Assembly (NCBI GenBank): GCA_965248265.1 | Contig: CBDFJF010000001.1 | Coordinates: forward strand, 416,001-480,000 | DNA length: 64,000 nt | From: Candidatus Latescibacterota bacterium | GTDB taxonomy: Bacteria; Latescibacterota; UBA2968; UBA8231 | Reading direction: 5' to 3' | Shown here: positions 8,611-60,723 of the stretch, one piece after another | Layout: the number at the start of each line of letters is the position of its first letter | Numbering within the stretch: the first letter of the stretch is position 1 | Notes under the pieces: generated by a model | Told to the model about the DNA's origin: nothing | The model's input: only the letters and a program-made list of their open reading frames with translations | Database searches by the model: none | Translations under genes and position numbers: made by a program

Positions 8611-8647
8611 GGGAACGAGAAGGAAAGTGCTGCTTCCTTGCCGGAAC

Positions 8648-8788
8648 TTATATCCCCAGCTCCTCCTCATTCAGCATGTAGGGCTCCGCTGTGTTTTGCC
8701 ACAAGCCACTGAAAAAAGCGGTGACAGCGACAGCCAGAGGGGCCAGAACCAGACCGGACAGCACGAAGATGAGTGTCGTAGCTTTCAT
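8648..8788 (-). CDS. Small single-TM protein (46 aa), CcoS/FixS-like
   Basis: GGGAGG SD upstream of ATG 8788; MKATTLIFVLSGLVLAPLAVAVTAFFSGLWQNTAEPYMLNEEELGI. Confidence 0.55.
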   Translation of the reverse strand: MKATTLIFVLSGLVLAPLAVAVTAFFSGLWQNTAEPYMLNEEELGI

Positions 8789-9028
8789 AGGAATAACCTC
8801 CCATTTATCCCTAGTATCGGACGCGCAGGGATATTCGTTAGGACCAATTGCCACAGTAGGCCGAGCAATCGATGTACCAACTGCCGCGGACGCGCGTAAG
8901 GCGATGCTGGGTGCAAGTGCGGGGAGGTCTGCCAGAATGCGGATCGGGGTGATCTTAATGGCAGTATTAATAATTACTTATCAAGTTTAGCAAATCTTGC
9001 CAAATACGGCAACCGGAGGGGAATTCAA

Positions 9029-10036
9029 TCACTCCACCCACACCTCCTCGAACAGCCGCAGCCAGTTGCGACCCAGAAGCTTCTGGGTCTCCTCATCCGT
9101 ATAACCACGGTCCAGCAGCACCTCCGCCAGGTGGGGAAATTCCGACGGCGTTTCCATTCCCTTCGGTTGAAAGCAAAGCTCGGTGTAGGGCACGGAGGCG
9201 TCGGCAAAGGTTGACGGGAACTTGGTGCCCTGCTGGGCGGCGATATAATGCCAGAACTCCAAAGGCTGGTCCTGAGTGTTATCCGTTCCCACGCCGACGT
9301 GGTCGATGCCGATTCGTTCCACCATGTTGTCGATCGCGTCCACGAAGTCCTCTATAGTCGAATCGTGGCCCTTGGGCAGGAAGGGGGCGAAGGAGCAGGC
9401 GCCGATCACACCGCCTTTCTCTGCAAGTAACTTCAACGACTCCTCAGTGCGATTGCGCGGGTGGTCACAGAAGGAGCGGGCGTTGGCATGCGTGATCGAC
9501 ACTGGTTTGTCCGAAGTCTCGATGGCTTCCAACGTCGTCCGGTCGCCGACGTGGGAGAGGTCGATGAGGATTCCCAGCTGGTTCATCTCGCGCACGGCGT
9601 CGATGCCGAAGTTGCTCAAGCCCTCGTCGCGCCGCTCCCAACAACCATTACCCAGCAGGTTGCGTTCGTGGTAGGTCAGCTGGATCGTGCGCACGCCGAG
9701 GGTATGGAAGAGCCCGAGTCTGTCTAGGTCGTTCTCTATGGGTGACGCGTTCTGAAAACTGAGGATGATGCCCGTTTTGTCCTGGGACTTGGCGGCATGG
9801 ATGCTGTCGATGTCCGTCACCTGCATGATGTCGTCGCGCTCACGAAACCGGCGCATCCAGACCGTGATATGGTCGATCGTCTGCAGGAAATTCTCCCAGG
9901 TGGACACGGTGGCGTTGATGGCGGTGACGTTGCCTGTCCGCAAGCCCTCAAACACTTCGGGGCTCTCCCAGTTGCTGACGTTGAGTCCGTCGATGACGAT
10001 GGCCTGGTCGTACAGCTGTTGCGCTTGCGTCTGCAT
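9029..10036 (-). CDS. Membrane dipeptidase (M19) family protein
   Basis: IQLTYHERN, GILIDLSH, ITHAN, HPRN, GIDHVGVGTD, LGRNWLR; start MQTQ coupled to upstream stop. Confidence 0.9.
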   Translation of the reverse strand: MQTQAQQLYDQAIVIDGLNVSNWESPEVFEGLRTGNVTAINATVSTWENFLQTIDHITVWMRRFRERDDIMQVTDIDSIHAAKSQDKTGIILSFQNASPIENDLDRLGLFHTLGVRTIQLTYHERNLLGNGCWERRDEGLSNFGIDAVREMNQLGILIDLSHVGDRTTLEAIETSDKPVSITHANARSFCDHPRNRTEESLKLLAEKGGVIGACSFAPFLPKGHDSTIEDFVDAIDNMVERIGIDHVGVGTDNTQDQPLEFWHYIAAQQGTKFPSTFADASVPYTELCFQPKGMETPSEFPHLAEVLLDRGYTDEETQKLLGRNWLRLFEEVWVE

Positions 10037-11169
10037 CAGTGTTCTCCTCTGAAGCGGTCGCCGATTCTGAACAGTCTTCCGAGCGGGTTGTCCCGGTCTT
10101 CGACGGCATCGGCGATCACGGGTCCGATGGCGCCGCCGAATTTGAAACCGTGGCCGCAGCCGCAACCGGCGATCAGCACACGACTGGAATCCGGTGCCCA
10201 ATCGACGACGAAATGGTCGTCCGGGGTGTTGGTGTAGAGGCAGGAGCGGCCGCCGACGAGCTCCCCATCGGACAATGCCGGTATGCGCTCAGCAACGAAC
10301 TCCCGGGCCTCAGCCAAGAACCGCTCCGTCGGTTCGCGGTCGCTGTCGGGATCGGCATCCAGTACCTTGTTGTCCTCGGCGACCTTGACGTAACCCTCGT
10401 CGAGGAATGGGAAGCCGTACCAGGCATTGTCCGGCGCCAGAACACTCCATACCGGGAAGACCTCCCGACGGAATTCCTGCGGGTCTGGCGGAACAAAGAA
10501 GGCCATCTGTTGCCGGGTGATCCGCAGATGTCGCTGCAACCCCGGGAATAGCCGGATCAACCAGGGTCCGGCACTGACGATGGCGCGGTCGCAAGAAACG
10601 GTGTCGCCATCCGCACCGACGACGTCGACCCGATCTCTCTTTTCGTCCACCTCCTGAACAGTCATCTGTTCGCGAACCTCGATGCCGTCTGAGCGGGCGA
10701 TGGTGGCCAGCTGTGTCAGCGCTTCGCCACTGCGCAGGTAACCGCTCCAGGGGTCGAAGAAGATGGTATCTTCAGCCTTCACGACGAACTGAGGAAAGCG
10801 CCTTCGGGCCTCATCAGCAGAAAGGGTCTCGATCTCGGCGCCGAGCCGCTTTGTTGTTTCGAAGCCGCTATGGACCTTGCTGTGAGCGGGCAAGTCGTGG
10901 GAGATGCTGAGAAGACCCGGCTGGTGGTAGATAGAGGACCCTGAGCGCTCCTGCCACCGCGCCCACTGCTCAGCGGCTCGAGTCACGAGCTCGACGTACT
11001 CTTCCTCTGGATAGTGAACGCGCCGGATGGCCTTGGAGACATCCGTCGAAGAAGCATCGGGGGCGGGTATGGTTCTGCGCTCGCATAGAGTCACCTGGTG
11101 ACCCCTGGCACGCAACTCGATGGCCGCCGCCATGCCGAAAATTCCTCCTCCTATCACACCCGTGTGCAC
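10036..11169 (-). CDS. FAD-dependent oxidoreductase, sarcosine/N-methyltryptophan oxidase-like
   Basis: GGGIFG Rossmann motif, SSTDVSKAIR, CLYTNTPD, GHGFKF. Confidence 0.88.
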   Translation of the reverse strand: MHTGVIGGGIFGMAAAIELRARGHQVTLCERRTIPAPDASSTDVSKAIRRVHYPEEEYVELVTRAAEQWARWQERSGSSIYHQPGLLSISHDLPAHSKVHSGFETTKRLGAEIETLSADEARRRFPQFVVKAEDTIFFDPWSGYLRSGEALTQLATIARSDGIEVREQMTVQEVDEKRDRVDVVGADGDTVSCDRAIVSAGPWLIRLFPGLQRHLRITRQQMAFFVPPDPQEFRREVFPVWSVLAPDNAWYGFPFLDEGYVKVAEDNKVLDADPDSDREPTERFLAEAREFVAERIPALSDGELVGGRSCLYTNTPDDHFVVDWAPDSSRVLIAGCGCGHGFKFGGAIGPVIADAVEDRDNPLGRLFRIGDRFRGEH

Positions 11170-12814: not shown

Positions 12815-14746
12815 CTACGGCAGGGCGAAGGCCATGATGCCCGCCGCACCTCCGGCATCGGGAGAGTTGGTCGGAATCGCGATAAACTGCCGTCCATTCA
12901 CTGAATACGTTATCGGGTTTCCTGTCGCGTTGCCGGGCATTGGCAAGCGATCGAGCAGGCGCCCATCCTCCAGATCATAGGCCCACAGATAGCGCTCGGC
13001 ATCGACGTCGAAGGAGTGTCCACCGCCGCGCAGCCATTGAGCGTGCTCGGCGGTGACCAGCAGCGACGTCGGCGTGGCCAGCACGAAGAACCGTCCGCCC
13101 GACCCAAGTGGCGGCAGCGGGCCGAGTGATTTCAGTGCGGGATGGTTCACGGGTCCGGTGCCGGTCGGTACCATCCACATGTGATCCCCCGAGTTCAGGT
13201 CGATGGCGGTGATTCTGCTGTAGGGCGGCTGCATCAATGGCAAGCCTTCGGGGCCATGCAGGGTTTCGTTCCGTTCGGCGAAATAGGTAGTGGTGGAGGA
13301 GTGAGCACCGGTTTCGCCAAGTTGAATCACATCCGGCTTGGTGTGGGATGGGATGTAGAGCCAGCCGGTACCCGCATCGATGGCGCCGCCCGTCCAGTCG
13401 CCTCCACCGACTCCACCAGGCAATGCTACAACCCCTCGTTGCGAGGGAGGGGTGTAGATGACTCCATGGTCGTACTGGGAGATGATCTCCAATGCCTGCT
13501 GCCGCAGAGCGGGGGTGAAATCGATGAGATCCTCTACCATCAGGCCCTGACGGTCGAAGGGGAGAGGGCGTGTCGGGAAGGGTTGGGTGGGCGAGACCTG
13601 TTCGCCCGGAGTCGTCGACGCCGGCACGGGTCGCTCTTGCAGTGGCCACACCGGATCACCGGTGATGCGGTCAAAGACGAAGCAAAAGGCCTGCTTGGTA
13701 ATCTGTGCTACCGCCTTGATGGGCCGTCCGTCAACGACGAGATCAACCAGGATCGGTGGCGCGGGCAGGTCGTAATCCCAGACATCGTGGTGGGTCAGCT
13801 GCTGGTGCCAGATCCGCTGGCCGGTGGCGGCATTCAGGCACACCAGGGACGAGGCAAACAGGTTGTCCCCGGGACGCTCGCCACCGTAATAGACGTTGTT
13901 GGGTCCACCGAAAGGGACGTAGACATATCCCAGCTCCTGATCCGAGCTGATGACGGCCCAGGCGTTGGCACGGCGGCCTCGTGCGAGGGAGTCTTTCTCC
14001 CACGTGTGTGCGCCGAATTCACCTGCTCGGGGTACCGAGTGGAAGGTCCACAGCTGCTCTCCCGTATGCACGTCAAATCCCCTGACATCCCCCGGCGGAG
14101 CAGCCTCGGATGTATGACTATCACCCACCGATGAGCCGACGACGACAACGTCGCGGCAGATCGTCGGCGGCGAATTGAGACTGTACTCGAAACGCTCTAC
14201 AGGAACGTCGAGCCCGTCAGTGAGATCGACACGTCCGGCGATTCCGAATGTTGAATCTGGCAAGCCGGATTTGGCATCGAGGGCGTAGAGGAAGGCGCTG
14301 GCGGTACCGAATAGGATACGGTCGTTACCCTCGCCATCCGACCAATATGCCACTCCCCGATGGGTACTGAAGTGATTGCGTTCCTTCCACGCTTCAGGAT
14401 CAAAACTCCACAACTGTTCACCCGTGGTTGCGTCGAGGGCGGCGACCATGCTCAAGGGGGTGCTGGTGTACAGGATGTCGTCAACGACGAGAGGTGTAGC
14501 GCGGTTGAATATGGGATACAGGCGCAGGTCGTCGCGCTCGAGAATGACTGCATCCGGAGAGCGCCATTGCCAGGCCAGCTCCAGTCGCGACAGGTTAGTG
14601 CCGTCTATCTGACGCAGCCGTGAGTATCTCGTGCTGGCTGGGTCAGCGCCGTAGTAGGCCCAATCGTGGGAGCCGGTCTGTGCGTTTGTAAGGTTGGGCG
14701 GCAGGCACAGGCATGCAACTATCGCGGCTGTGCAGGTAGATTTCAA
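12815..14746 (-). CDS. Secreted PQQ-dependent glucose/quinate dehydrogenase-like beta-propeller protein
   Basis: Signal peptide, WAYYG..STRYS, HHDVWDYD, PYSRITAIDL, PITYSVNGRQFI. Confidence 0.9.
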   Translation of the reverse strand: MKSTCTAAIVACLCLPPNLTNAQTGSHDWAYYGADPASTRYSRLRQIDGTNLSRLELAWQWRSPDAVILERDDLRLYPIFNRATPLVVDDILYTSTPLSMVAALDATTGEQLWSFDPEAWKERNHFSTHRGVAYWSDGEGNDRILFGTASAFLYALDAKSGLPDSTFGIAGRVDLTDGLDVPVERFEYSLNSPPTICRDVVVVGSSVGDSHTSEAAPPGDVRGFDVHTGEQLWTFHSVPRAGEFGAHTWEKDSLARGRRANAWAVISSDQELGYVYVPFGGPNNVYYGGERPGDNLFASSLVCLNAATGQRIWHQQLTHHDVWDYDLPAPPILVDLVVDGRPIKAVAQITKQAFCFVFDRITGDPVWPLQERPVPASTTPGEQVSPTQPFPTRPLPFDRQGLMVEDLIDFTPALRQQALEIISQYDHGVIYTPPSQRGVVALPGGVGGGDWTGGAIDAGTGWLYIPSHTKPDVIQLGETGAHSSTTTYFAERNETLHGPEGLPLMQPPYSRITAIDLNSGDHMWMVPTGTGPVNHPALKSLGPLPPLGSGGRFFVLATPTSLLVTAEHAQWLRGGGHSFDVDAERYLWAYDLEDGRLLDRLPMPGNATGNPITYSVNGRQFIAIPTNSPDAGGAAGIMAFALP

Positions 14747-45430: not shown

Positions 45431-46600
45431 TTATTCCGTATTCGTCATGATGTGGTGGTAGATCTCGACTGCTTCGAGTACCTGCTCACATTCCACCCAT
45501 TCAACGGCACCATGCGCCTGGTCGATACTGCCGGGCCCCAGGACGATGGCCGGGACTCCTGCGTCAGCGAACGGACTGCCATCCGTGCCGTAAGGGACGC
45601 CGGCGATGGTGGCGTCGCCGAGAACGGCCCGGCAGGCAGCGACGGAGCTGTTGACGATGGGCGCATCCTCGGCCGTGCCCATCGCTCCACAGGCAAACAT
45701 CAACGGTCTCTCGATGCGGGCGTCCAACTTGGAGTCCTCGGCACCGGCGGCTGAGATGATCTGCTCGAATGCACCGACGACGCTCTCAGGCGTGTCTCCG
45801 GGCAGGATGCGGCAGTCCACGGCAGCGCGGCAGCTGTCGGGGACGAAGTTGATCTGAGCGCCTCCTTCGACGATGCCGACATTGAATGTGGGGTTGCCCA
45901 GGAGAGGGTCGCTCCTGGACTCGTACTGCGGACCCAGTTCATCCTCGAGGCGGACGATGAGCCGCGCCATCTTGTTGATGGCGTTAACTCCCAGGTACGG
46001 CTTGGAACTGTGCGCCGCCTTGCCGTTGACGATGATATGGAAGCGGATGACGCCTTTGTGGCCGCGGATAACTTCGAGATCCGTGGGTTCGGCGATGACG
46101 GCGGCTTCCGCATTCACCAGCGGAGCCATGTGCCTGGCGCCACGCATCAGGTGCTCTTCATCCACGGCGCCGGCATAGGCGATCGACATGGGCGGCACGG
46201 TGCCAGTCTCAACCAGTCGTTTCATGGCATGAATCATGGCAACGCCGCCAGCCTTGGTGTCGCATGAGCCACGGCCATAGAGCAGGCCATCGCGGATGTG
46301 CGGCTCAAACGGGGGGATGGTCATGACTTCGGCTGATGCCGTATCCATGTGGCATTCGAACAGCAGGATGCGATCAGGATTCTGGCCTTGTAGTGTGGCG
46401 ACAATGTTGTTGCGTCCCGGCAGCGCTTCTGACAACTGGTAGGGAATATTCAAGTCGGTGAAAAATCCGGCCAGGTAGTCGACCATGCCGGCCTCGCCTC
46501 GGTCCTTGCCCCCTGGAAGCGAGGGATTGACGCTGTCGATGGCGACGACCTCTTGCAGGGTTGCGAGAATCTCGTTTTCACTGCGCGTCCAGGTAGCCAT
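45431..46600 (-). CDS. M20 ArgE/DapE-family deacylase
   Basis: HMDT, GRGSCDTK, DEE, EPT, GKAAHSS, GPG..QAH. Confidence 0.9.
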   Translation of the reverse strand: MATWTRSENEILATLQEVVAIDSVNPSLPGGKDRGEAGMVDYLAGFFTDLNIPYQLSEALPGRNNIVATLQGQNPDRILLFECHMDTASAEVMTIPPFEPHIRDGLLYGRGSCDTKAGGVAMIHAMKRLVETGTVPPMSIAYAGAVDEEHLMRGARHMAPLVNAEAAVIAEPTDLEVIRGHKGVIRFHIIVNGKAAHSSKPYLGVNAINKMARLIVRLEDELGPQYESRSDPLLGNPTFNVGIVEGGAQINFVPDSCRAAVDCRILPGDTPESVVGAFEQIISAAGAEDSKLDARIERPLMFACGAMGTAEDAPIVNSSVAACRAVLGDATIAGVPYGTDGSPFADAGVPAIVLGPGSIDQAHGAVEWVECEQVLEAVEIYHHIMTNTE

Positions 46601-46606
46601 GAGCAA

Positions 46607-47082
46607 TCACAGAATCCTGAGGACTGAGTTGACGAATGTGGCGAACACGTCGATGCCGAAGAATAGCCTGAGGAGCTCGTGGACCGCCAGCGGTGAGGCC
46701 AGCAAGAAAGCCAGTGGCAGGCTGCTGTGCAGGGAAAACTTCTCGCGGTTTGCGTGAAACCAGGCCCACAGGATGATCAGCAGTGACGCCCCGATGATCA
46801 GGCCACCCAGCAGGTTGAGAATCCAGACCAGAGCAACCGGAAGGCCCCAGATCGAACCGATGATGTTGTAGGAAAATGGCAACAAATTCGCCCAGAACAG
46901 GCGGTGGTCACGGAGGCCCCGTAGACGAGAACGCCGACGCTCAGACTGCCTCCGGCCAGAGCAAACAGGTCGAGTGGCTGGCGCATTGCGGCGTGCCACC
47001 ACGTCACCGTGGCGATGTGGAGCCACATAAAGAACAGCGCCAGGAAGAGGGCCCTGGCATGATTCGGGGGAGTGAAGGACAT
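46607..47082 (-). pseudogene. Multi-pass membrane protein split by a 1-nt frameshift near 46917-46920
   Basis: N-terminal half (MSFTPP..VLVYG) and C-terminal half (GLRDHRLFW..LRIL) are hydrophobic and join at a G4 run. Confidence 0.65.
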
Positions 47083-47102
47083 GGGTGTCGGTTTTTGGCG
47101 AG

Positions 47103-47648
47103 TCAGTTGCTCTGAGGCATCTCTTCGAGTGGAATCTCCTTGACCAGTTTCTCTATTTGCCGGGCCTGTAACTCGCCCAAATCAGCCTTCCTGTCCTCCG
47201 CACCATGTCTACTCACAAACGCGCGCATCTCCCGCATCAATCGCATATGCAGACCCGCCAGCAGACTGCCGCTTTCGACATCCCTGGCAATGTGCTGGTC
47301 AAAGAAGCGCTCCGCCGCCTGACGCACGTCGGGGTCGTTGTATATCTGGAGGTGGTCTTGCTGGACGGGAGACAGGGTGAGTGACACCAGCTGTTCGATG
47401 AAGCGCTCGCGAAAACCGGACATGTCGGGCCGGTTGGGCTCATAGGAGATAAGCTCGCCGATGTGGCGGCATCCCAGTGCCGTGTAGATGCGATCGAGCG
47501 TTTTCAGGTCGATGCGCTCGATGTCGCCGTTCACCAACCGATTAATCTGCTGCCGTGGCACACCGATCTTGCGCGCCAACTCGGCCTGACTGGGTGAGCC
47601 GGGCCGCTCAAGAAGGTCCTTCAGTCTGAACTTCATCATAGTGGTCAT
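47103..47648 (-). CDS. XRE/Cro-C1 HTH transcriptional regulator with helical C-terminal domain
   Basis: LKDLL..SQAELARKIGVPRQQINRL..IDLKTLDRI; true start may be the ATG at 47639. Confidence 0.85.
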   Translation of the reverse strand: MTTMMKFRLKDLLERPGSPSQAELARKIGVPRQQINRLVNGDIERIDLKTLDRIYTALGCRHIGELISYEPNRPDMSGFRERFIEQLVSLTLSPVQQDHLQIYNDPDVRQAAERFFDQHIARDVESGSLLAGLHMRLMREMRAFVSRHGAEDRKADLGELQARQIEKLVKEIPLEEMPQSN

Positions 47649-47690
47649 CCACGTTCCATGTTATTTACCCACCTTCCGTGGCTTTTGCAC

Positions 47691-47778
47691 AACTTACAAC
47701 TCTACAAATATCGAGTCAACAGATTTATGCACATATGTCATCAAAAGAGTTGACATTCGTAAACACATAAATTACCTT
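47691..47778. promoter_or_regulatory. Back-to-back sigma70-like promoters with candidate operator
   Basis: + strand TTGACA(47750-55)-N17-TACCTT; - strand TTGACT(47719-14)-N17-TAAGTT; inverted repeat ATGTCA-N10-TGACAT (47735-47756). Confidence 0.6.
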
Positions 47779-47849
47779 GAGCGCGAAATTCATCCATCCC
47801 ATGAAACTTTGTGGGTTATTGTTTTACTATTTGACACTAAGGAGCGCTC

Positions 47850-48157
47850 ATGTTTCAGACCAGCTTGCGCTACGGCATTCAAAAGGCGATGGAGTCCGAC
47901 GTAGAGCCGGAGCAGTTGCGCACAACGGTAGGGCAGCAAAGGTAGGGCAGCAAATCGAGTATTTGCTGGACGAGTCAGATGATCCGCAGGTAACCGCACA
48001 GATTCGCCAGGCCCTGCGGGATCCACAGGCCACGATCGAAGTGAAGTCTGGAAGCCAGATTCAGACGGCTACTCCCAACATGCCTCTGCGTGAATTGTTG
48101 CCACCCAACAGCGAGAAGATCGAGATCACGGTTAGCCAGCCACACGCGGGAGGCTGA
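47850..48157 (+). pseudogene. Ubiquitin-like (beta-grasp) protein ending in Gly-Gly, frameshifted by a 14-bp tandem duplication (97 aa when restored)
   Basis: SD AAGGAG 47839-44, ATG 47850; GGTAGGGCAGCAAA x2 gives TAG at 47943; removing one copy reads through to ..KIEITVSQPHAGG*. Confidence 0.78.
47927..47954 (+). repeat. Exact 14-bp tandem duplication GGTAGGGCAGCAAA x2
   Basis: 47927-47940 identical to 47941-47954. Confidence 0.95.
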
Positions 48158-48164
48158 TTCACCC

Positions 48165-49550
48165 GTGAATGGTGGTCCCACAGTGCGTCGCCTCCACCGT
48201 GAACGGGAGGCTCGGATCGTGCAAGCACGGATCACGCAACCGTACGGGAGACAACGCACTACAAGGCGGCCGCGGGCCCACAACGGGAGGGCCAACACGC
48301 CAGAGATCGAGCCCGGGTATTTGCACCACGGATTGGTGCCGCACCCGGAGCTGGTCGTTCCCGCGGCTGCATCGCCGAAGGCTCCATTCCCGCTCAGCAT
48401 CGTCAGCGTGCTCGGGGCCACGGGCAATTGTGATGGCGTGTTCGTCCTCGACGGTCAACTGGGACGCTTGTCCCAGCACAAGCAGTCCCCGACAGACCTG
48501 TTTGTCGAATACGGCGGCATCAGGCAGTACATCCACTTCCAAGCAAGCGTTGAGGAGCGACTCGGAGAGACCGTACGTGCGCGGCTGCCCAGCATCTGGC
48601 AGTGGTTCAGCCAGGCGGGAGCTCGGCGCTATGCCGAACTGGATGGTTGGAGCACGCCGCTGTCGGCTGTGGCGGTCGATCGGGTTGACGGATTCGTCGC
48701 GGAGCGGCTGATCCCCTTCATTGAGGAGCACGTCGAGGAACAGGGTGCACTGGAGCAACAACCGAGCGCGTTTTCGTTCGAGTCCGTGGTTGATCGAGTG
48801 ATGCCAGGCCTGGCAGGCTCCTTCGCCTTTCTCGCTGGCCGCTGGATGCGTTTGATTCCCTTCTTCGGCAGGCCCAGGCCAGGACAGCCACTGCTTCGGG
48901 TGGGCAACGAATACCTGGTCGGCATACAATCGCAGCCTTCAGCCGTTGCCGTGGCGACCTACGATACCGCGCTGCGAGATGCCGTGTGCGCCGCCTGCGC
49001 GGCGGCGGCACGCGATGGTGATCACAGCGACACCCGCAGCGGAGGCGATCTCTACAGACAGGAGCCCTACGCCGTGATCCGCACGCCGCGCGGCCGCTGT
49101 TTTGTGTGTCAGCGCCTGCCGCCGTACGTGGTGGAGGGAATGGACAAGAAGCTCTACTACTTCGATGGCGCCGAGATCGGCATTCACGTGACAACGACCC
49201 AGGTGCAGAGCGTCATCACCTGCGCCTGTGTCCAGGTGCTGCATTCCTACAAACACATGTTCGTGGGCACACTGGGCACCGGCAACTTTATCTGCATGCC
49301 TCGAGATCATTCCTACTACCAGGCCCTCAACCGGGAACCGCTCGAGCGCGCTCTCATCGAGCATCTGGAGTCGGCGCGTATGACCCTGTGTGCCGGCTAC
49401 CAACCAGTCAACTCATCAGTCCACCGTATCCAGAGCGTGGGACGTCGGACGATCAGTCTGTCCGAAGTCCGCAGGAGAAACCTGCCCGTCTACTGGTATT
49501 ACGAACCACGCCGGAGCGCGCGCTCGAAAGTCATGTCGATGTTCGTGTGA
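48165..49550 (+). CDS. Large protein with putative C-terminal E2/UBC-like domain
   Basis: YKHMFVGTLGTGNFICM resembles the UBC Y.HPN....G.ICL motif; lies between Ubl and E1; start GTG 48165 or GTG 48219 (both with GGGAGG SD). Confidence 0.6.
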   Translation: MNGGPTVRRLHREREARIVQARITQPYGRQRTTRRPRAHNGRANTPEIEPGYLHHGLVPHPELVVPAAASPKAPFPLSIVSVLGATGNCDGVFVLDGQLGRLSQHKQSPTDLFVEYGGIRQYIHFQASVEERLGETVRARLPSIWQWFSQAGARRYAELDGWSTPLSAVAVDRVDGFVAERLIPFIEEHVEEQGALEQQPSAFSFESVVDRVMPGLAGSFAFLAGRWMRLIPFFGRPRPGQPLLRVGNEYLVGIQSQPSAVAVATYDTALRDAVCAACAAAARDGDHSDTRSGGDLYRQEPYAVIRTPRGRCFVCQRLPPYVVEGMDKKLYYFDGAEIGIHVTTTQVQSVITCACVQVLHSYKHMFVGTLGTGNFICMPRDHSYYQALNREPLERALIEHLESARMTLCAGYQPVNSSVHRIQSVGRRTISLSEVRRRNLPVYWYYEPRRSARSKVMSMFV

Positions 49551-50869
49551 TGGAGCGATACGCACGACAAACCGTCATCGAAGGATGGGATCAGAGCCGA
49601 TTATCGGCGGCGACCGTCGCCATCGCGGGGACCGGCCCCACCGCTTTCATGTGTGCTCTGCTCTCCGTGGCCATGGGCTTCGGTAGGGTAGTGCTGATCG
49701 GCAAGGCCAAATCAACCGAGGCCGCCACCAAAGATCTTCCCGCACTGATGCAGTCATCGAATGACCTCTGGGTTGAGTTTCTGGGGCAAGTTAATCCGCA
49801 GGTGCGCATCTACCCGGTAAGTCGAACATGCTCACCGGAGTTGATTCGCCGATTGCCGCAGCTGGATGGCCTCGTGGTTGCCGGGAATGATGCGCGGGCG
49901 CTCGGGGTTGGCTGTCAGGTGGCGAGTGACGGCGCGGTTCCCGTGGTCGCCGGAGGTAGTGCCGGGCCTGTCGGTGTATGGGGTGCACCACAACTCGACG
50001 GCCTTACGAGCAAGTTGTCGAGATATCCCGAATCGCCGTTGACGGCCCAGATCATCGCCGCGTTGCTAGTGGAGGAGATCCGTAAGGATCTGCTACCCCT
50101 GTCGAATGAGGCGGGCCGTTCCTCGACCAGGAGGATTGTCGCCCTCTCGCGGCTGGCTCCAGAGAAGGCCAACGGTCGAGACCGGCTGTTCAGACTGACG
50201 ACGGACCAACTGCACATCGTCGGAGCAGGGGCCCTGGGAACCTGGTTCGGCATTGGCCTGGGCCTGGCCGGAGTGCGGGCTCAACTACATATCTTCGACG
50301 GGGATCACGTCGAGGAGACCAACCTCAATCGCCAGGTCCTGTTCGCCGGCGCCGTGGGAAAGCCTAAAGCGACCGTGCTGGCTGCCCGCCTGCAGGATCT
50401 GTTTCCGACGCTGCGGACCAACGGCTACGGGACCAGAGTCGCCGCCGACACGGAAGAGATGATGGAAGGGTCAGGCGTGGTCGCCGCGTGTCCGGACAAC
50501 TTCCAGGTGCGCGCCTTTCTCGCCAGTATGGCCATGCGCCGCAGGCAGACGCTTCTCAACGGAGGCACCAGCGCCGTCGGCGGATCCTGCACCGCTTACG
50601 TACCCGGGCACACCAGCTGCCTGTCGTGTCTGATGGACATCGAGCGCCTCGCCCTGCAGGAGATGGCGCCAACCGGTTGCGCCCAGCAGGTGGAGTCGTC
50701 AGTGGTTACGAGCAATGCCGCCATCGGCGCGCTGATGGCCTGGAGCTTCAAGGAGATGAGGTGTGGCCGGGTGCATCCGGGAATCTGGGAATACGACGGG
50801 CGGTCGCACGGTGAGCGCATCGGGGTGCACTCGGTGAGGCCGGCGTGCGAGTGTCATATGAAGGATTGA
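49550..50869 (+). CDS. Tandem ThiF/E1-like activating enzyme (degenerate + active adenylation domains), 439 aa
   Basis: N-terminal RYARQ..GW.Q..L..A.V.I.G.G; second domain VGAGALG, DGDHVEETNLNRQ, GKPKA, CPDN, CLSC, GC, terminal CEC; TGATG coupling. Confidence 0.85.
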   Translation: MERYARQTVIEGWDQSRLSAATVAIAGTGPTAFMCALLSVAMGFGRVVLIGKAKSTEAATKDLPALMQSSNDLWVEFLGQVNPQVRIYPVSRTCSPELIRRLPQLDGLVVAGNDARALGVGCQVASDGAVPVVAGGSAGPVGVWGAPQLDGLTSKLSRYPESPLTAQIIAALLVEEIRKDLLPLSNEAGRSSTRRIVALSRLAPEKANGRDRLFRLTTDQLHIVGAGALGTWFGIGLGLAGVRAQLHIFDGDHVEETNLNRQVLFAGAVGKPKATVLAARLQDLFPTLRTNGYGTRVAADTEEMMEGSGVVAACPDNFQVRAFLASMAMRRRQTLLNGGTSAVGGSCTAYVPGHTSCLSCLMDIERLALQEMAPTGCAQQVESSVVTSNAAIGALMAWSFKEMRCGRVHPGIWEYDGRSHGERIGVHSVRPACECHMKD

Positions 50870-50941
50870 CGCTGAAGTTCATGACGGGAAACAGGCACCT
50901 ACGTTGCCATCACGTAATTACCTGTTTATCGCAAACAAACA

Positions 50942-50989
50942 TGGTGGCTCCTCGCGGAATCGAACCGCGGACACGGGGATTTTCGGTCC
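50942..50989 (-). mobile_element. Duplicated 3' half of tRNA-Phe (att-like site)
   Basis: 48 nt matching 52862-52909 with 3 mismatches, ending in CCA; lacks the 5' half. Confidence 0.8.
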
Positions 50990-51192: not shown

Positions 51193-52584
51193 ATGACGAG
51201 TGACAAGAACAAGACAAAGGCGCAACTGCTGGTTGAGGTGAAAGAGTTACGTGAGGCGCGCGCAACCAGTGAATCAGCGGAACGCATTCGAGAGGCAGTG
51301 CTGTCGATGCGGCACAGTGATGACTTGATGAACGTAATGGGGTTGATGGTTGTGGAGTTGAGGCAGCTCGGAATAGAAGATATATGTTGCGGCATCAGTT
51401 TTTTCGATGAAGAGAGCGATCTCCGAATCGATTATTACGGTTGGGACAATCCACGCCATTACGGCATTTCCTGGACCTCGTCTGCGGTGAGGGAGATAAC
51501 CGACACGGTAGCGGGTTACAAATTTGAGCGGAAACTATCGGAGAGTCCCTCGAAAACATTTGAAATCTGGCGCCGGGGCAAGGTGCACCACGGCGGAGAG
51601 GGGATGAAATATTGGATTGAACGGACCAGTCGCGAGTTTGTGGAACGGTTCGGGTTCAGCCGTCCTCTACCTTGGTTTGATCGGGAGGATGTGAACGTGA
51701 CATACGTGCCTTTCGAACATGGAATAGTTCACGCTCTTGGCAGTACGTTGTCAGCTTCCGAGGTGGGGTTCGTAAAACACTTCACTACAGCTCTATCCCT
51801 GGGGTACGTCCGCTTTCGCGACTTCCAGTGCCTTGAGGAAAGAGCACGCCAGCTAGAACAGGAACTGGAGACAGCCCGCGATCTGCAGATGGCGCTCATG
51901 CCAACGGATTCTCCGGCTATCGAGGGACTACAGATTGCAGCTCGTTGCATCCCCGCCACACAGGTAGGTGGTGATTTCTTCCAATACTTCCACACTGACG
52001 ATCGCCTCTCCATTTCCATAGCAGACGTGACCGGCCACGCGATGGAAGCCGCCATCCCCGTAGTCATGTTCGAGGGTGTACTGTCCAGCCAAATGCGTAT
52101 CGGACCGGATCTGGAGAGCCTGTTCACTGCCCTCAATGACGTAATGGCCGATAGGCTCACAGGCCGCACCCATGTCTGTTTCTCCATGGCTCAGATCGAT
52201 ATCAACACCAGAGCAGTTCGCTTCGCCAATGCCGGTTGCCCGTATCCCTACCATTACAACGCGATCTCAGAGACCGTCACCGAGCTTGAGGCCAACGCAT
52301 ATCCTTTTGGTGTACGCGCAGGCACGACCTACCAAGCCGTCGAGGCCCAATTGGAACCAGGCGATCGACTCGTGTTCTGCTCTGACGGCATCATGGAGGC
52401 CAGGAACCCTGAGGGTGAGATGTATGGTTTCGACCAGACGGCTGAGACGGTCCGCCAGGGCTGCCAGGACGGTCTGGCCTCGGAGGCGTTGCTGGATCGT
52501 ATTGTCGTCGACGTGCGATCCTTCAGCGGCGAGCAGCCCCAAGAGGACGATCAGACTATCGTAATTATAGGCGTTGAATCTTGA
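51193..52584 (+). CDS. PP2C/SpoIIE (RsbU-like) phosphatase with N-terminal sensory region
   Basis: A..LQ..LMP, VGGDFF, ADVTGH, NAGCP, SDGIMEA, QEDDQT. Confidence 0.9.
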   Translation: MTSDKNKTKAQLLVEVKELREARATSESAERIREAVLSMRHSDDLMNVMGLMVVELRQLGIEDICCGISFFDEESDLRIDYYGWDNPRHYGISWTSSAVREITDTVAGYKFERKLSESPSKTFEIWRRGKVHHGGEGMKYWIERTSREFVERFGFSRPLPWFDREDVNVTYVPFEHGIVHALGSTLSASEVGFVKHFTTALSLGYVRFRDFQCLEERARQLEQELETARDLQMALMPTDSPAIEGLQIAARCIPATQVGGDFFQYFHTDDRLSISIADVTGHAMEAAIPVVMFEGVLSSQMRIGPDLESLFTALNDVMADRLTGRTHVCFSMAQIDINTRAVRFANAGCPYPYHYNAISETVTELEANAYPFGVRAGTTYQAVEAQLEPGDRLVFCSDGIMEARNPEGEMYGFDQTAETVRQGCQDGLASEALLDRIVVDVRSFSGEQPQEDDQTIVIIGVES

Positions 52585-52813
52585 CGTTAGGGTGGACCTG
52601 ACCACGAATGAATCGACTGATTAGACAGGCCGTTCTGATGCTCGATCTGTTCTGCGGGTAAGCCATTGCGTCTTCTGCAACAAGGAAGGGCTCAATAACG
52701 CCGCGGAGAGAGCAGGTACCCAAGTCTCACATGACCACGAAAAGAGTGCGATCCAACAGCTTCGGTACCAAGATAGTCGCCACAAGACGCAAAAGACTGC
52801 ATAACAAAAAAAA

Positions 52814-52848
52814 GGCACCTACGTTGCTATCACGTAAGTGCCTGTTTA
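52814..52848. terminator. Hairpin downstream of tRNA-Phe (terminator or att-arm-like), repeated near 50890-50928
   Basis: AGGCAC-CTACGT..ACGTAA-GTGCCT next to an A9 run (U-tract on the minus strand). Confidence 0.55.
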
Positions 52849-52861
52849 CATTAAAGAAATA

Positions 52862-52937
52862 TGGTGGCTCCTCGCAGAATCGAACTGCGGACACGGGGAT
52901 TTTCAGTCCCCTGCTCTACCGACTGAGCTAAAGAGCC
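52862..52937 (-). tRNA. tRNA-Phe (GAA)
   Basis: GGCTCTTTAGCTCAGTCGGTAGAGCAGGGGACTGAAAATCCCCGTGTCCGCAGTTCGATTCTGCGAGGAGCCACCA, 76 nt cloverleaf with encoded CCA. Confidence 0.96.
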
Positions 52938-57946: not shown

Positions 57947-59641
57947 ATGGCGTCATCGACCAAGGCCGCATCCAGGAAGAAGGGCAAGGCCCCTGCCAAG
58001 TCCAAGCGTCCGCGCGGATCCGGAAAGCCGGCCGCCGTCGAGGCAACGGCGGATTCGTCCAAACCACCGAAGCCCAAAACCAGCGGCAACGGCAAGGCCA
58101 CTGCGCAAACCATGGCGCTCAAGCAGCGCGAGATTTCCGTCTCCGAGTTCTTCAGTCGCAACCGTCATCTGCTCGGCTTCGACAATCCGCGGCGCGCCCT
58201 GTTGACCGGGGTCAAGGAAGCGGTCGACAAGAGCCTCGACGCCTGCGAAGAGGCTGGCATCCTGCCGCAGCTCATGGTCGAAATCGAATCAACCGCCGAA
58301 GACCGTTACATCATGCGGGTTCAGGACAACGGACCCGGAATCGTGAAGACGCAGATTCCGAATATCTTCGGTAAGCTGCTATACGGTTCGAAGTTCCATC
58401 GTCTGCGCATGTCACGTGGTCAGCAGGGGATCGGCATCTCGGCCGCCAGCATGTACGGCCAACTCACCACGGGTAAACCGACGCGGATCATTTCCCGCAT
58501 CAGCACCCGCCGGCCGGCACACCAGTACGAGATCGTCATCAACACGACCAAGAACAAACCCGAAGTCATCCGTGATATAGAGATCGAAGGTGATGAGTAC
58601 CGGCGGGGCACGATGGTAGAGATAGAAATGGAGGCGCGCTATCTCAAGGGGCGGCAGTCCGTCGACGAGTACCTCAGGCAGACGGTGTTGACGAATCCCC
58701 ATATGGAGTTGCTCTTCCGGGCTCCTGACGGCACGGAGACAGTCTACGAGCGCTCAACCAGGGACCTGCCGCAGGAGACGATCGAAGTAAAGCCGCATCC
58801 ACATGGAGTTGAGCTGGGTGCACTGATGAAGATGATGCAGGATACGCCATCCCGCACCGTGCAAGCGTTTCTGACCAGCGAATTCTGCAGGGTGTCGACA
58901 AGGGTCGCAAAAGAGTTCTGCGACACGGCACAGATTCGGCCCACGGCTCGCCCCAAGAGCATAGCCCGAGAGGAGACGGACCGCCTCTACAAGGCGATCA
59001 ACAATACGAAACTGATGAAGCCGCCGACCAATTGTATCGTACCGATTGGAGAAGAGCTGGTGTTGAGCAGTCTTCAGCAGAACGTCGAGGCCGAGTTCTT
59101 CACCTCGACGACGAGGCCACCGGCCGTGTACCGTGGCAATCCGTTTCAAATTGAAGTGGCGATGGCCTACGGTGGCGACATCGATCCCGAGGGGACGCTG
59201 ACGCTGATGCGTTTCGCCAACCGCGTCCCTCTACTGTATCAACAGGCCGCGTGTGCGATAACGAAGAGTGTGATTGACGTGGACTGGCGCAAGTACCGGA
59301 TGAGCCAGAGCGGCAACGCGTTGCCGACGGGTCCCCTGGTGGTACTCGTGCACATGGCCTCGGTGTGGGTGCCGTTCACCTCCGAAAGCAAGGAAGCCGT
59401 CGCCCATTATCCGGAGATCATCAAGGAGATTCGCCTGGCACTGCAGGAGTGCGGGCGGAGAGTGGGTGAGCATTTGGGTCGCCAGCGCCGAGCCGAGGAA
59501 GCCGAGCGCAAGCGCGATTACATTCAGAGTTACATCGGCCACATAGCTGACGCTATTCAGGAGATTACCGGCGACAGCGAGCGCAAACGCAACACCGTGG
59601 AAAAGTCGTTGCGTACGATTTTGGAGAGGAGCCGCTCATGA
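57947..59641 (+). CDS. top6B: DNA topoisomerase VI subunit B
   Basis: [52 protein letters not shown]. Confidence 0.95.
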
Positions 59642-60723
59642 GCGCGCTGGTGAAGAGGATCGAGAAGGAAGCGAAGAGCATTCGTGACAAGATTCTGAAG
59701 AAGCAGAAGCCGTCGATGAAGTTTCCTCTGCGCAGCCTGAGCAACGTGCGTTTCGATCCCAAGGCCGGGTACTTCGAGATGGGACGCAAGACGAAGGAGC
59801 GTACGCTGGCGGTGGCCAGCGTTAAGACGTTCGCGCAGTCTCTCAAGATGGTGTCTCTGTCGAAGAGATTGATCGAGACCGACGACATAGCAACGAAGAG
59901 AGAGGCCTATTACGTCGCCAAGGGCTGGGATCCAGAGATGCGCTTCAGTGAGCAAGATGAGTCGGATACTGTCCTCGACGACATCGAGGCCTTTCTTCGT
60001 GTCAATCGAGAGCAGTTGGGGTTCGTACCCGAGGAAAAGGGTGGTGAGGTCGCCGGCAATTTGACCGTCATTGACCAGGACAGTGATAGCGGAGACGAGC
60101 TCGAGATCGACTGCACGAAGTTCGGGTCCGGGGCTTACTCGATCCCGATCTCGGTCGAGCACCTGGGTTTTCGCTCAGACGCCAAGTTCGTCCTCGCGAT
60201 CGAGACCGCCGGCATGTTTCAGCGCCTGTGCAAGCATAACTACTGGCGCACGGCCGAGTGCATCCTGGTGTCCATGGGAGGAGTGCCGACGCGGGCGACG
60301 CGCCGGTTCATCCGGCGTCTGTCCGACGAGCTCAAGATTCCGGTTTACGCATTCGTCGACTGCGACCCCTACGGCATCTGCAACATCTACCGCACGCTGA
60401 AGGTGGGCTCAGGCAACGCCGCCCACCTGAACGAGTTTTTCTGTGTGCCCAAAGCCCGTTTTCTCGGAGTGACCCCCGACGATATCGATACCTACAGTCT
60501 GCCGACGCATCCGATGACGGAGGTCGACATCAAGCGGATTGATGACGCCCTCAAGAATGATCCGTTCGTTCAACACTACAAGCGATGGCAGGAGGCATTG
60601 ACGGGGCTCAAGCAGCGAGGGGAGCGTGCGGAACAACAGGCGTTCGCGGTGCATGATCTGAATCATGTGATTAATACTTATTTACCGGAGAAATTGGAGA
60701 GTGCTGGGGCGTTTTTGCCGTAG
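59638..60723 (+). CDS. top6A: DNA topoisomerase VI subunit A (Spo11 homolog)
   Basis: TKREAYY (catalytic Tyr), EQDESD, TOPRIM IETAG, G.P.RATR, DCDPYG, AEQQ. Confidence 0.95.

Follow-up and report, generated by a model that had tools for sequence, protein, structure and literature searches.

A candidate peptidase-free ubiquitin-like conjugation operon in a Latescibacterota genome

We analysed a 64,000-nucleotide (nt) stretch of DNA, here called the window, from Candidatus Latescibacterota bacterium (assembly GCA_965248265.1, 7.3 Mb in 2 contigs; contig CBDFJF010000001.1, positions 416,001 to 480,000). Three co-directional genes in it encode a ubiquitin-like protein (Ubl), a protein resembling E2 conjugating enzymes (E2L) and an E1 activating enzyme, and they probably represent an uncatalogued and rare family of operons for ubiquitin-like conjugation in bacteria, with Ubl, E2 and E1 as its minimal core, as judged from sequence and structural models. 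The CBASS protein Cap2 and the Bil and Bub systems have been worked out since 2022, and each new operon family showed a different chemistry or architecture. To our knowledge, phyla of the Latescibacterota type have no cultured model organisms, and such systems have not been looked for there. The original prediction of a Ubl-E2-E1 module of different architecture, with an already mature Ubl, no JAB peptidase and a very large E2, stands as a computational inference. Its genes are as follows (aa, amino acids):

47850..48157, plus strand: Ubl gene, with a 14-bp tandem duplication inside, ending Gly-Gly-stop (alignment to relatives)
48165..49550, plus strand: E2L gene, 461 aa (open reading frame, family alignments, model)
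49550..50869, plus strand: E1 gene, 439 aa (Pfam ThiF, alignment of relatives)

A Shine-Dalgarno sequence (AAGGAG) precedes the Ubl ATG at 47850, the GTG start of E2L lies 7 nt past the Ubl stop, and the E1 ATG at 49550 overlaps the E2L stop.

The E1, Ubl and E2-like proteins

The E1 matches Pfam ThiF (PF00899) with 127 bits, against a cut-off of 28.1, over residues 209-416 of 439, and its best sequence matches in the PDB are the active adenylation domains of UBA7, UBA1 and UBA3, followed by ThiF. Across an alignment of 26 full-length relatives, the invariant positions (26/26) comprise GAGALG (225-230), D250, D252, NLNRQ (258-262), K273 and D316, the zinc cysteines C357, C360, C433 and C435, C377 on a crossover loop of about 24 residues, and R3, R6 and Q7 at the N-terminus. 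The roles of these residues (nucleotide, Mg and zinc binding, crossover-loop cysteine) are assigned by analogy with ThiF and MoeB structures. The adenylation, zinc and cysteine motifs thus proved as intact as had been claimed. The active ThiF half spans residues ~210-439; the N-terminal ~200 residues lack nucleotide motifs yet align with the C-terminal half profile to profile (hhalign probability 85.6%, E 5.6e-6, 128 columns), and for this reason the N-terminal half is predicted to be an inactive, Rossmann-like adenylation domain. The E1 contains no inserted CYS domain, ubiquitin-fold domain (UFD) or rhodanese domain.

The Ubl gene of the window is broken, as described below, and its family was searched with an intact relative. 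This search, in a space of 5.8 billion clustered proteins, returned 26 cluster representatives, 23 of them 96-97 aa long and 3 shorter entries of 73-92 aa. G96 and G97 are invariant and directly followed by the stop codon in all 24 aligned relatives, which agrees with the prediction that the Ubl is already mature. A model built from a 95%-identical intact relative (24-sequence alignment), and not from the broken gene, reached a predicted local distance difference test score (pLDDT) of 86.7, with the order strand-strand-helix-helix-strand-strand-strand (b-b-a-a-b-b-b), as in beta-grasp. Ubiquitin, NEDD8, SUMO, FAT10, MoaD (rank 39) and other beta-grasp proteins are among the PDB matches that Foldseek listed for this model, with template modelling (TM) scores of 0.45-0.58; the top one is the Caldiarchaeum ubiquitin 6fnn_C (E 8.6e-3, prob 0.98). 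Model and matches together support the beta-grasp fold on which the prediction turned. The Ubl has no sequence match in Pfam, NCBIfam, PADLOC or the PDB.

The middle protein had been described as a ~450-aa protein with the motif H..V.....G..IC, and the 461-aa E2L indeed carries the exact string H364-M-F-V-x5-G-x-F-I-C377. H364, C377, R380, E402, R405 and C409 are invariant in 21/21 aligned sequences; a basic N-terminal GGPTVRRxHRER is conserved, the linker variable and the C-terminal third strongly conserved. Relatives number 26 cluster representatives among the 5.8 billion proteins, and a hidden Markov model search of 1.84 billion representatives gave 117 matches at E<=1e-3, 56 of them at E<=1e-30. 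A Pfam scan (E<=0.01) of 47 weaker, mostly full-length relatives picked by hand from the 117 found no E2 family and nothing informative. One match of the E2L, the 2794-aa phage-like polyprotein P0221, looks spurious. Against PDB sequences (E<=10), E2L gave nothing but a chance match to the basic region (bZIP) of c-Fos (E 3.2).

The AlphaFold model of E2L (pLDDT 78.7) consists of an N-terminal helix, a disordered linker, two alpha/beta domains and a meander-plus-helices domain. When it was compared with known structures by VIA-align, 47 of the 50 listed rows were E2, UEV or RWD folds, 45 by entry title and two (FTS and VPS37A) that we count as UEV-like. The best match is Pex4p (2y9m_A, Z 7.7, root-mean-square deviation (rmsd) 4.3, 136 aligned, model 171-429), and the bacterial E2s listed are BubB (9eav_D, Z 6.3) and Cap2 (7to3_A, Z 4.9). 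The tool sets a caution line at Z 8 and calls values beneath it 'middling'; our argument for an E2 fold is the uniformity of the list. A compact match (2a7l_B, residues 34-117 on model 311-410, rmsd 3.0) puts the E2 active-site region at about model 365-385, and by interpolation H364-x12-C377 would fall where that region maps. The spacing and secondary-structure position of this motif fit the HPN...Cys motif of E2 enzymes. E2L residues 290-450 scored at most 0.89 in a search of the ESM Atlas (Cas_CXXC_CXXC clusters); because the tool draws its line at 0.9, this result was left unused.

Modelling of the E1-Ubl-E2 complex, one of the checks proposed with the original prediction, used E1, Ubl and E2L as chains with E2L as the scored partner, and gave interface scores (ipSAE) of 0.86, 0.85 and 0.86; the score fell to 0.00 in the two controls in which E2L was swapped out. 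At least 38% of contacts recur between runs, and partner pLDDT is at least 66. Of 80 solved complexes 58 came up to the mark applied, as did 2 of 110 mismatched pairs, counts that are only rough for a three-chain job with its own alignments. In the confident interface, E1 272-304 of the active domain, a stretch that includes the near-invariant G292 (in GYG), contacts E2L 229-255, which holds the conserved L-I/V-P-F-x-G strand of the middle domain. The model supports binding of E2L and does not show it. The N-terminal GGPTVRRxHRER (within E2L residues 1-70, window 48165-48380) is near-invariant and lies outside the confident contacts; a linker of ~45 residues follows, poorly conserved and modelled with low confidence. 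As a guess, this motif might bind the E1 or nucleic acid.

Conservation of the module and comparison with known systems

Within the Latescibacterota, the module gave 6 strong matches in 168 genomes, apart from one weak match that we discounted, and a further 11 loci came from metagenomes. The order Ubl-E2L-E1 is kept in every locus with enough sequence, and members of the three families share identical 'longest contig' values in the protein database, an indirect sign of co-location. Neither JAB nor any other conserved peptidase accompanies the triad in the window or in the loci read, in keeping with the claim that there is no deubiquitinase. Likewise, no ThiG, MoaE, rhodanese, desulfurase or CysM gene is conserved beside it (window open reading frames and loci L009, L013, L015, L018 and L019), which bears out the predicted lack of sulfur-relay partners.

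A regulator with a helix-turn-helix (HTH) domain and a small membrane protein are encoded as a pair facing the triad in 6 of 10 distinct loci (the window, L009, L016, L010, L006 and L019), and orthologues of the membrane protein, 156-158 aa long, adjoin the HTH gene in L019, L010, L016, L006 and L009. In L015 the module is instead accompanied by an uncharacterised protein of 537 aa, in L011 by an IS3 element and in L013 and L018 by unrelated genes; insertion sequence (IS) elements adjoin two module copies. Locus L011 (G042, 8087-10154) is a distant variant, in which a Ubl gene is followed by a 253-aa open reading frame with RLHRER, a 264-nt gap, a 224-aa E2-only frame carrying DHPFVF...GRLCMG, and a 495-aa E1; here an IS3-family transposase pair occupies the regulator's position. 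In L015 (11100-12737, where it is fused to an FGE-sulfatase domain) and in L009 (9672-10223), the E1 is followed closely by a caspase-family (Peptidase_C14) gene that runs in the opposite direction. Its presence in two unrelated copies could be a coincidence or could mark a loosely linked peptidase.

Among described systems, the Bil operons (type I/II BilABCD; Iyer classes 6C/6D) share the most features with the window family. As described in PMC10557695, they consist of a Ubl, an E2, a JAB peptidase and an E1 with an inactive adenylation domain (IAD), an active adenylation domain (AAD) and an inserted CYS domain of ~80 aa. Both families have separate Ubl, E2-like and E1 genes, an E1 that fuses an inactive and an active half, and a four-cysteine zinc site split between crossover loop and C-terminus (C340/C343/C491/C493 in BilD according to the same source, C357/C360/C433/C435 here); cysteine chemistry is expected for the window family as well. 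Unlike Bil, the window module and the loci read have no JAB/BilC, and the Gly-Gly of the Ubl is free from the start; the CYS domain of ~80 aa (PMC10557695) is missing from the E1, which bears its invariant cysteine on the crossover loop of ~24 residues; E2L, three times the size, has no sequence match to PDB chains, Bil entries included, and is predicted to dock on the E1 through an additional domain.

Bub operons (6E/DUF6527), according to PMC11601596, encode fused proteins (Ubl-E2 or E2-E1), form Ser/Tyr oxyesters and always include the serine protease BubE (DUF6527); type II Bub typically lacks a JAB peptidase, and the biological role of Bub is there also given as unknown. The window family resembles them in combining Ubl, E2 and E1, and BubB is among the E2L fold matches (Z 6.3), whereas its genes are separate, its cysteines invariant and a DUF6527 match absent. 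Cap2 of type II CBASS (with Cap3) is an E2-E1 fusion that goes together with a CD-NTase and a JAB peptidase; the window family has neither that fusion nor a CD-NTase, and its PADLOC match is to the adenylation core. A JAB domain occurs somewhere in all of classes 6a-6e as listed by Iyer et al. 2006 (PMC1779556).

ThiF/MoeB with ThiS/MoaD have in common with the window family a ThiF-family adenylation domain, a zinc site, a short-loop cysteine and a beta-grasp partner ending in GG. They differ in that their E1s are homodimers (PMC10557695) and work with sulfur-transfer partners and no E2, whereas the window encodes a pseudo-dimer and a protein with a predicted E2 fold. The minimal archaeal operon of Caldiarchaeum subterraneum is likewise compact, with separate Ubl, E1 and E2, and its ubiquitin is the top structural match of our Ubl; it includes a canonical UQ_con-type E2, a RING E3 and an Rpn11-type deubiquitinase (compare PMC5654768), none of which is detectable in the window family.

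The window family thus shares the Ubl, the predicted E2 fold and the IAD-AAD E1 with Bil, lacks the JAB and CYS features of Bil and all features of Bub, and is best called a variant of bacterial ubiquitin-like conjugation systems. We found no description of it in the literature, including a text search for Latescibacter with ubiquitin-like, the scope of which stopped short of the supplementary operon lists of the Bil and Bub papers.

Proposed mechanism and rival explanations

The chemical steps and the docking mode proposed here build on the gene order, conservation, motifs and fold predictions described above. The single-chain E1 would fold as a pseudo-dimer, its inactive N-terminal half supplying the conserved N-terminal Arg/Gln motif, and its active half would bind ATP/Mg and adenylate the free C-terminal Gly-Gly of the 97-aa beta-grasp protein. 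C377 of the E1, on the short crossover loop, would then take the Ubl as a thioester. E2L would dock on the active half by placing the L-I/V-P-F-x-G strand of its middle domain (229-236) against E1 289-295, its own C377, behind the E2-like His364 motif, would receive the Ubl, and no separate E3 would be needed for the transfer from E2L to a target, which the large N-terminal part of E2L would probably select. The module would run without a processing or removing peptidase, and the divergent regulator and small membrane protein would probably control the conjugation system or be served by it.

A fuller reading, which we offer tentatively, is that the module constitutes an undescribed peptidase-free and E3-free Ubl conjugation pathway, with an E1 that is an evolutionary intermediate and a cellular rather than a phage-defence role. 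If true, this would be a pathway of Latescibacterota and, by source labels, Gemmatimonadota, and a fourth layout of such systems, with a mature Ubl, no peptidase and no E3. Its E1 would be a fused pseudo-dimer like the eukaryotic and Bil E1s with the catalytic cysteine still on a ThiF-type short loop, and would bridge ThiF/MoeB and those enzymes. Its E2 would have built-in docking and target-recognition parts, the dedicated docking domain adding a strand to the active adenylation domain in place of docking via a UFD. If the reading holds, the chromosomal seat among housekeeping genes, with a regulator and a membrane protein, would point to a cellular role that is stress- or membrane-linked. 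Reconstitution should be straightforward because the core has only three genes.

Several results weigh against the proposal of a conjugation operon. A Pfam scan of the N-terminal half of the E1 gave no match and no ThiF signal, so that the tandem ThiF arrangement of the original prediction is backed by the profile alignment of the two halves and finds no support in Pfam. No Foldseek match of the Ubl attains E 1e-3. The E2L sequence matches nothing in Pfam (E<=1), NCBIfam or PADLOC, UQ_con and Prok-E2 included; its best fold match, at Z 7.7, lies under the VIA-align caution line, and Foldseek with the whole E2L model found nothing in the PDB at E<=0.001, its top rows being polo-box and MbtI structures with TM ~0.1. 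The ubiquitin-conjugating (UBC) fold expected of the middle protein is therefore favoured by the VIA-align list around the conserved His and Cys, but not by Foldseek. C377 of E2L is predicted to be the catalytic cysteine from motif, conservation and a rough interpolation, and the proposal does not account for a second invariant cysteine, C409, or for the two N-terminal domains. In the complex modelling, a control with the E1 replaced still scored 0.64, which leaves a margin of +0.22, barely over the mark; part of the score is therefore not specific to the E1, and presumably stems from contact between E2L and Ubl. Finally, module genes appear broken in relatives too, by mutation or assembly indel: the Ubl of G099 (L004/L010) is split across two frames, the E2L of G098 (L006+L008) is in two pieces, and that of G101 (L002/L009) has its N-terminal 81 conserved codons in a frame other than the remainder.

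The alternative that survives best is an anti-phage defence of the Bil/Bub kind, in which the Ubl would be conjugated to phage proteins on infection and the XRE-type regulator would hold the operon off before. The analogy with Bil and Bub (PMC11601596) speaks for it, as do the divergent regulator, the patchy distribution (6 strong matches among the 168 phylum genomes), the IS elements adjoining two copies, the recurrent gene breakage and a variable spot at tRNA-Phe nearby, which in L019 holds a HepT-like toxin gene. We consider it unlikely, however. PADLOC, one of the checks that the original prediction had suggested, gave no match for Ubl or E2L and matched the E1 solely by generic adenylation-core models (E1-E2 models, residues ~200-360). 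Neighbours are metabolic and housekeeping genes, and among 25 open reading frames of the window and 26 neighbouring ones of relatives there was no known defence, integrase or phage gene save the HepT-like gene, 3 kb off in L019. A pattern scan of 2.9 million viral contigs produced 56 pattern matches, none confirmed as a relative, and the location of the module is syntenic across diverged genomes. The defence role that had been raised as a possibility is thus unsupported.

It is quite improbable that the triad is a sulfur-carrier or biosynthetic system, with the GG protein a ThiS/MoaD-type carrier that ends as a thiocarboxylate and the middle protein a novel Cys-dependent small-molecule transferase. 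ThiF/MoeB models are indeed the best NCBIfam matches of the E1, but they score far under their cut-offs: all 22 listed equivalog families (ThiF, MoeB, UbaA and others) fell short, the best, TIGR02356, with 94.9 against 275.25 bits. MoaD is among the structural matches of the Ubl, and E2L has two invariant cysteines; the fold matches of the middle protein, however, are E2s. The missing peptidase and E3 and the metabolic chromosomal neighbours would suit such a system, yet none of the sulfur-transfer genes named above is conserved beside the triad in the loci examined. Moreover, the E1 appears as a fused inactive-active pseudo-dimer, the form of BilD, whereas the other known bacterial E1-like proteins (ThiF, MoeB and Cap2) are homodimers according to PMC10557695.

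It is more improbable still that the middle protein is a UEV/RWD-like adaptor or scaffold, or a Cys-His peptidase, while the E1 alone conjugates the Ubl as in archaeal SAMP/UbaA, even though UEV and RWD domains are among the E2L fold matches (rows 33, 35 and 40), E2L has no sequence family link to any E2 and conjugation without an E2 is known from SAMP/UbaA and Urm1: UEV and RWD domains lack the cysteine, whereas His364 and Cys377 are invariant in 21/21 sequences at the spacing and position of the E2 motif, and a His followed by a Cys 13 residues on misfits papain-like peptidases.

The broken Ubl gene and the chromosomal setting

In this genome, the module of the proposed conjugation pathway is damaged. 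From the Shine-Dalgarno sequence and ATG at 47850, the Ubl frame runs for 31 codons and then meets TAG because a 14-nt stretch, GGTAGGGCAGCAAA, is duplicated in exact tandem (47927-47940 and 47941-47954; Tandem Repeats Finder, period 14). The remaining 71 C-terminal codons sit in another frame and end ..SQPHAGG-TGA at 48157. Both fragments align collinearly with relatives and overlap at the duplicated VGQQ, and removal of one repeat copy would restore the 97 codons of the family. The ~97-aa protein ending in GG of the original prediction therefore has no intact open reading frame in the window, although its C-terminal fragment ends AGG-stop and the family ends in GG.

The 14-bp duplication is not an artefact of this assembly. 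Contigs built independently from three runs of one sample match 46500-48400 with zero differences and zero gaps, and the same runs contain a second contig of lower depth, ~87% identical and exactly 14 nt shorter over 47849-48158. A contig from another sample (run X4, ~92% identical) has 2 additional nt at 47938/47939, not a 14-nt deletion, together with an in-frame 15-nt deletion in the E2L linker (48220). The membrane gene is frameshifted as well: the tblastn alignment to the L010 orthologue jumps from one frame to another at ~46905-46915, the X4 contig carries one additional A behind 46907, and one base has been lost near that position, at a site that is not a homopolymer. By comparison, the reading frames of rpoB, rpoC and two dnaE-type genes, which together make up ~15 kb of this genome, are unbroken; indels are thus not widespread in the assembly, and the two frameshifts within the 4.3-kb module are probably biological. 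With the Ubl and membrane genes out of frame, the module is probably not working in this strain, and the pathway is probably off or decaying in this genome. The finding matters less for this genome because the tag gene is broken. Programmed -1 frameshifting at the duplicated stretch was a further reading that we rejected: the sequence lacks a canonical slippery heptamer, the 97-codon gene of close relatives is uninterrupted, and the co-occurring ~87%-identical contig is exactly 14 nt shorter.

The region comprises five genes in two divergent units, the HTH and membrane genes on the minus strand and Ubl-E2L-E1 on the plus strand. Beyond the triad, its features are:

46607..47082, minus strand: small multi-pass membrane protein gene (tblastn with the L010 orthologue; co-conserved with the HTH gene)
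47103..47648, minus strand: XRE/Cro-C1-type HTH regulator gene, 181 aa, C-terminal half uncharacterised (Pfam HTH_26 and HTH_3)
47649..47849, no strand: divergent intergenic region, ~200 bp, lower GC (sequence, GC bins)
50880..50989, minus strand: partial tRNA-Phe copy, 3' 48 nt plus 62 nt of downstream flank (85% identical to 52800-52909)
51193-52584: SpoIIE/PP2C-type phosphatase gene (Pfam SpoIIE, E 6.9e-42)
52862..52937, minus strand: intact tRNA-Phe(GAA)

The gene at 47103-47648 (Pfam HTH_26, E 5.2e-14; HTH_3, E 2.7e-8) is the divergent XRE regulator that had been predicted, with the membrane gene downstream of it in the minus-strand unit. GC content is 0.51 in the bin 47600-48199, against ~0.62 in the flanking genes, and the GC profile of the region shows no compositional island. 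A promoter and terminator scan of the region found weak consensus promoter matches, no better than shuffles.

The tRNA-Phe fragment beside the module belongs to a direct repeat of 110 nt (50880-50989 and 52800-52909, 85% identity), each copy made of the 3' 48 nt of tRNA-Phe and 62 nt of downstream flank. The repeat brackets a 1.9-kb segment with a single gene, the phosphatase; with no integrase, this segment resembles a small insertion or segmental duplication at the tRNA-Phe spot. In locus L019, whose E2L is 40% identical, the module keeps its position with respect to tRNA-Phe, a 183-aa gene, a glutaredoxin gene and a MurA-like gene, while the genes between the module and the tRNA-Phe-side landmarks differ from those of the window. 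The module thus adjoins a variable spot, at a position shared by diverged genomes. We rejected the reading of the tRNA fragment as the att site of an island bearing the module: 62 nt of the repeat are flank and not tRNA, the phosphatase is the only gene between its copies, the module being outside them, and no integrase turned up. The att-like fragment of the original prediction is accordingly a real repeat, but with no integrase and with L019 syntenic, it gives no evidence of a mobile island. In L019, the variable stretch between module and tRNA-Phe contains the HepT-like gene (13615-14337), a toxin-type nucleotidyltransferase partner.

Further genes near the module in the window encode a sulfatase, an aminotransferase, an aldolase, an enolase-superfamily enzyme, an M20 peptidase, an EPSP-synthase-family (MurA-like) protein and topoisomerase VI, in addition to the SpoIIE phosphatase. 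In this bacterial genome, the genes for topoisomerase VI subunits B and A adjoin each other at window 57947-60723 (Topo-VIb_trans, E 1.5e-59; TOP6A Toprim, E 1.9e-59).

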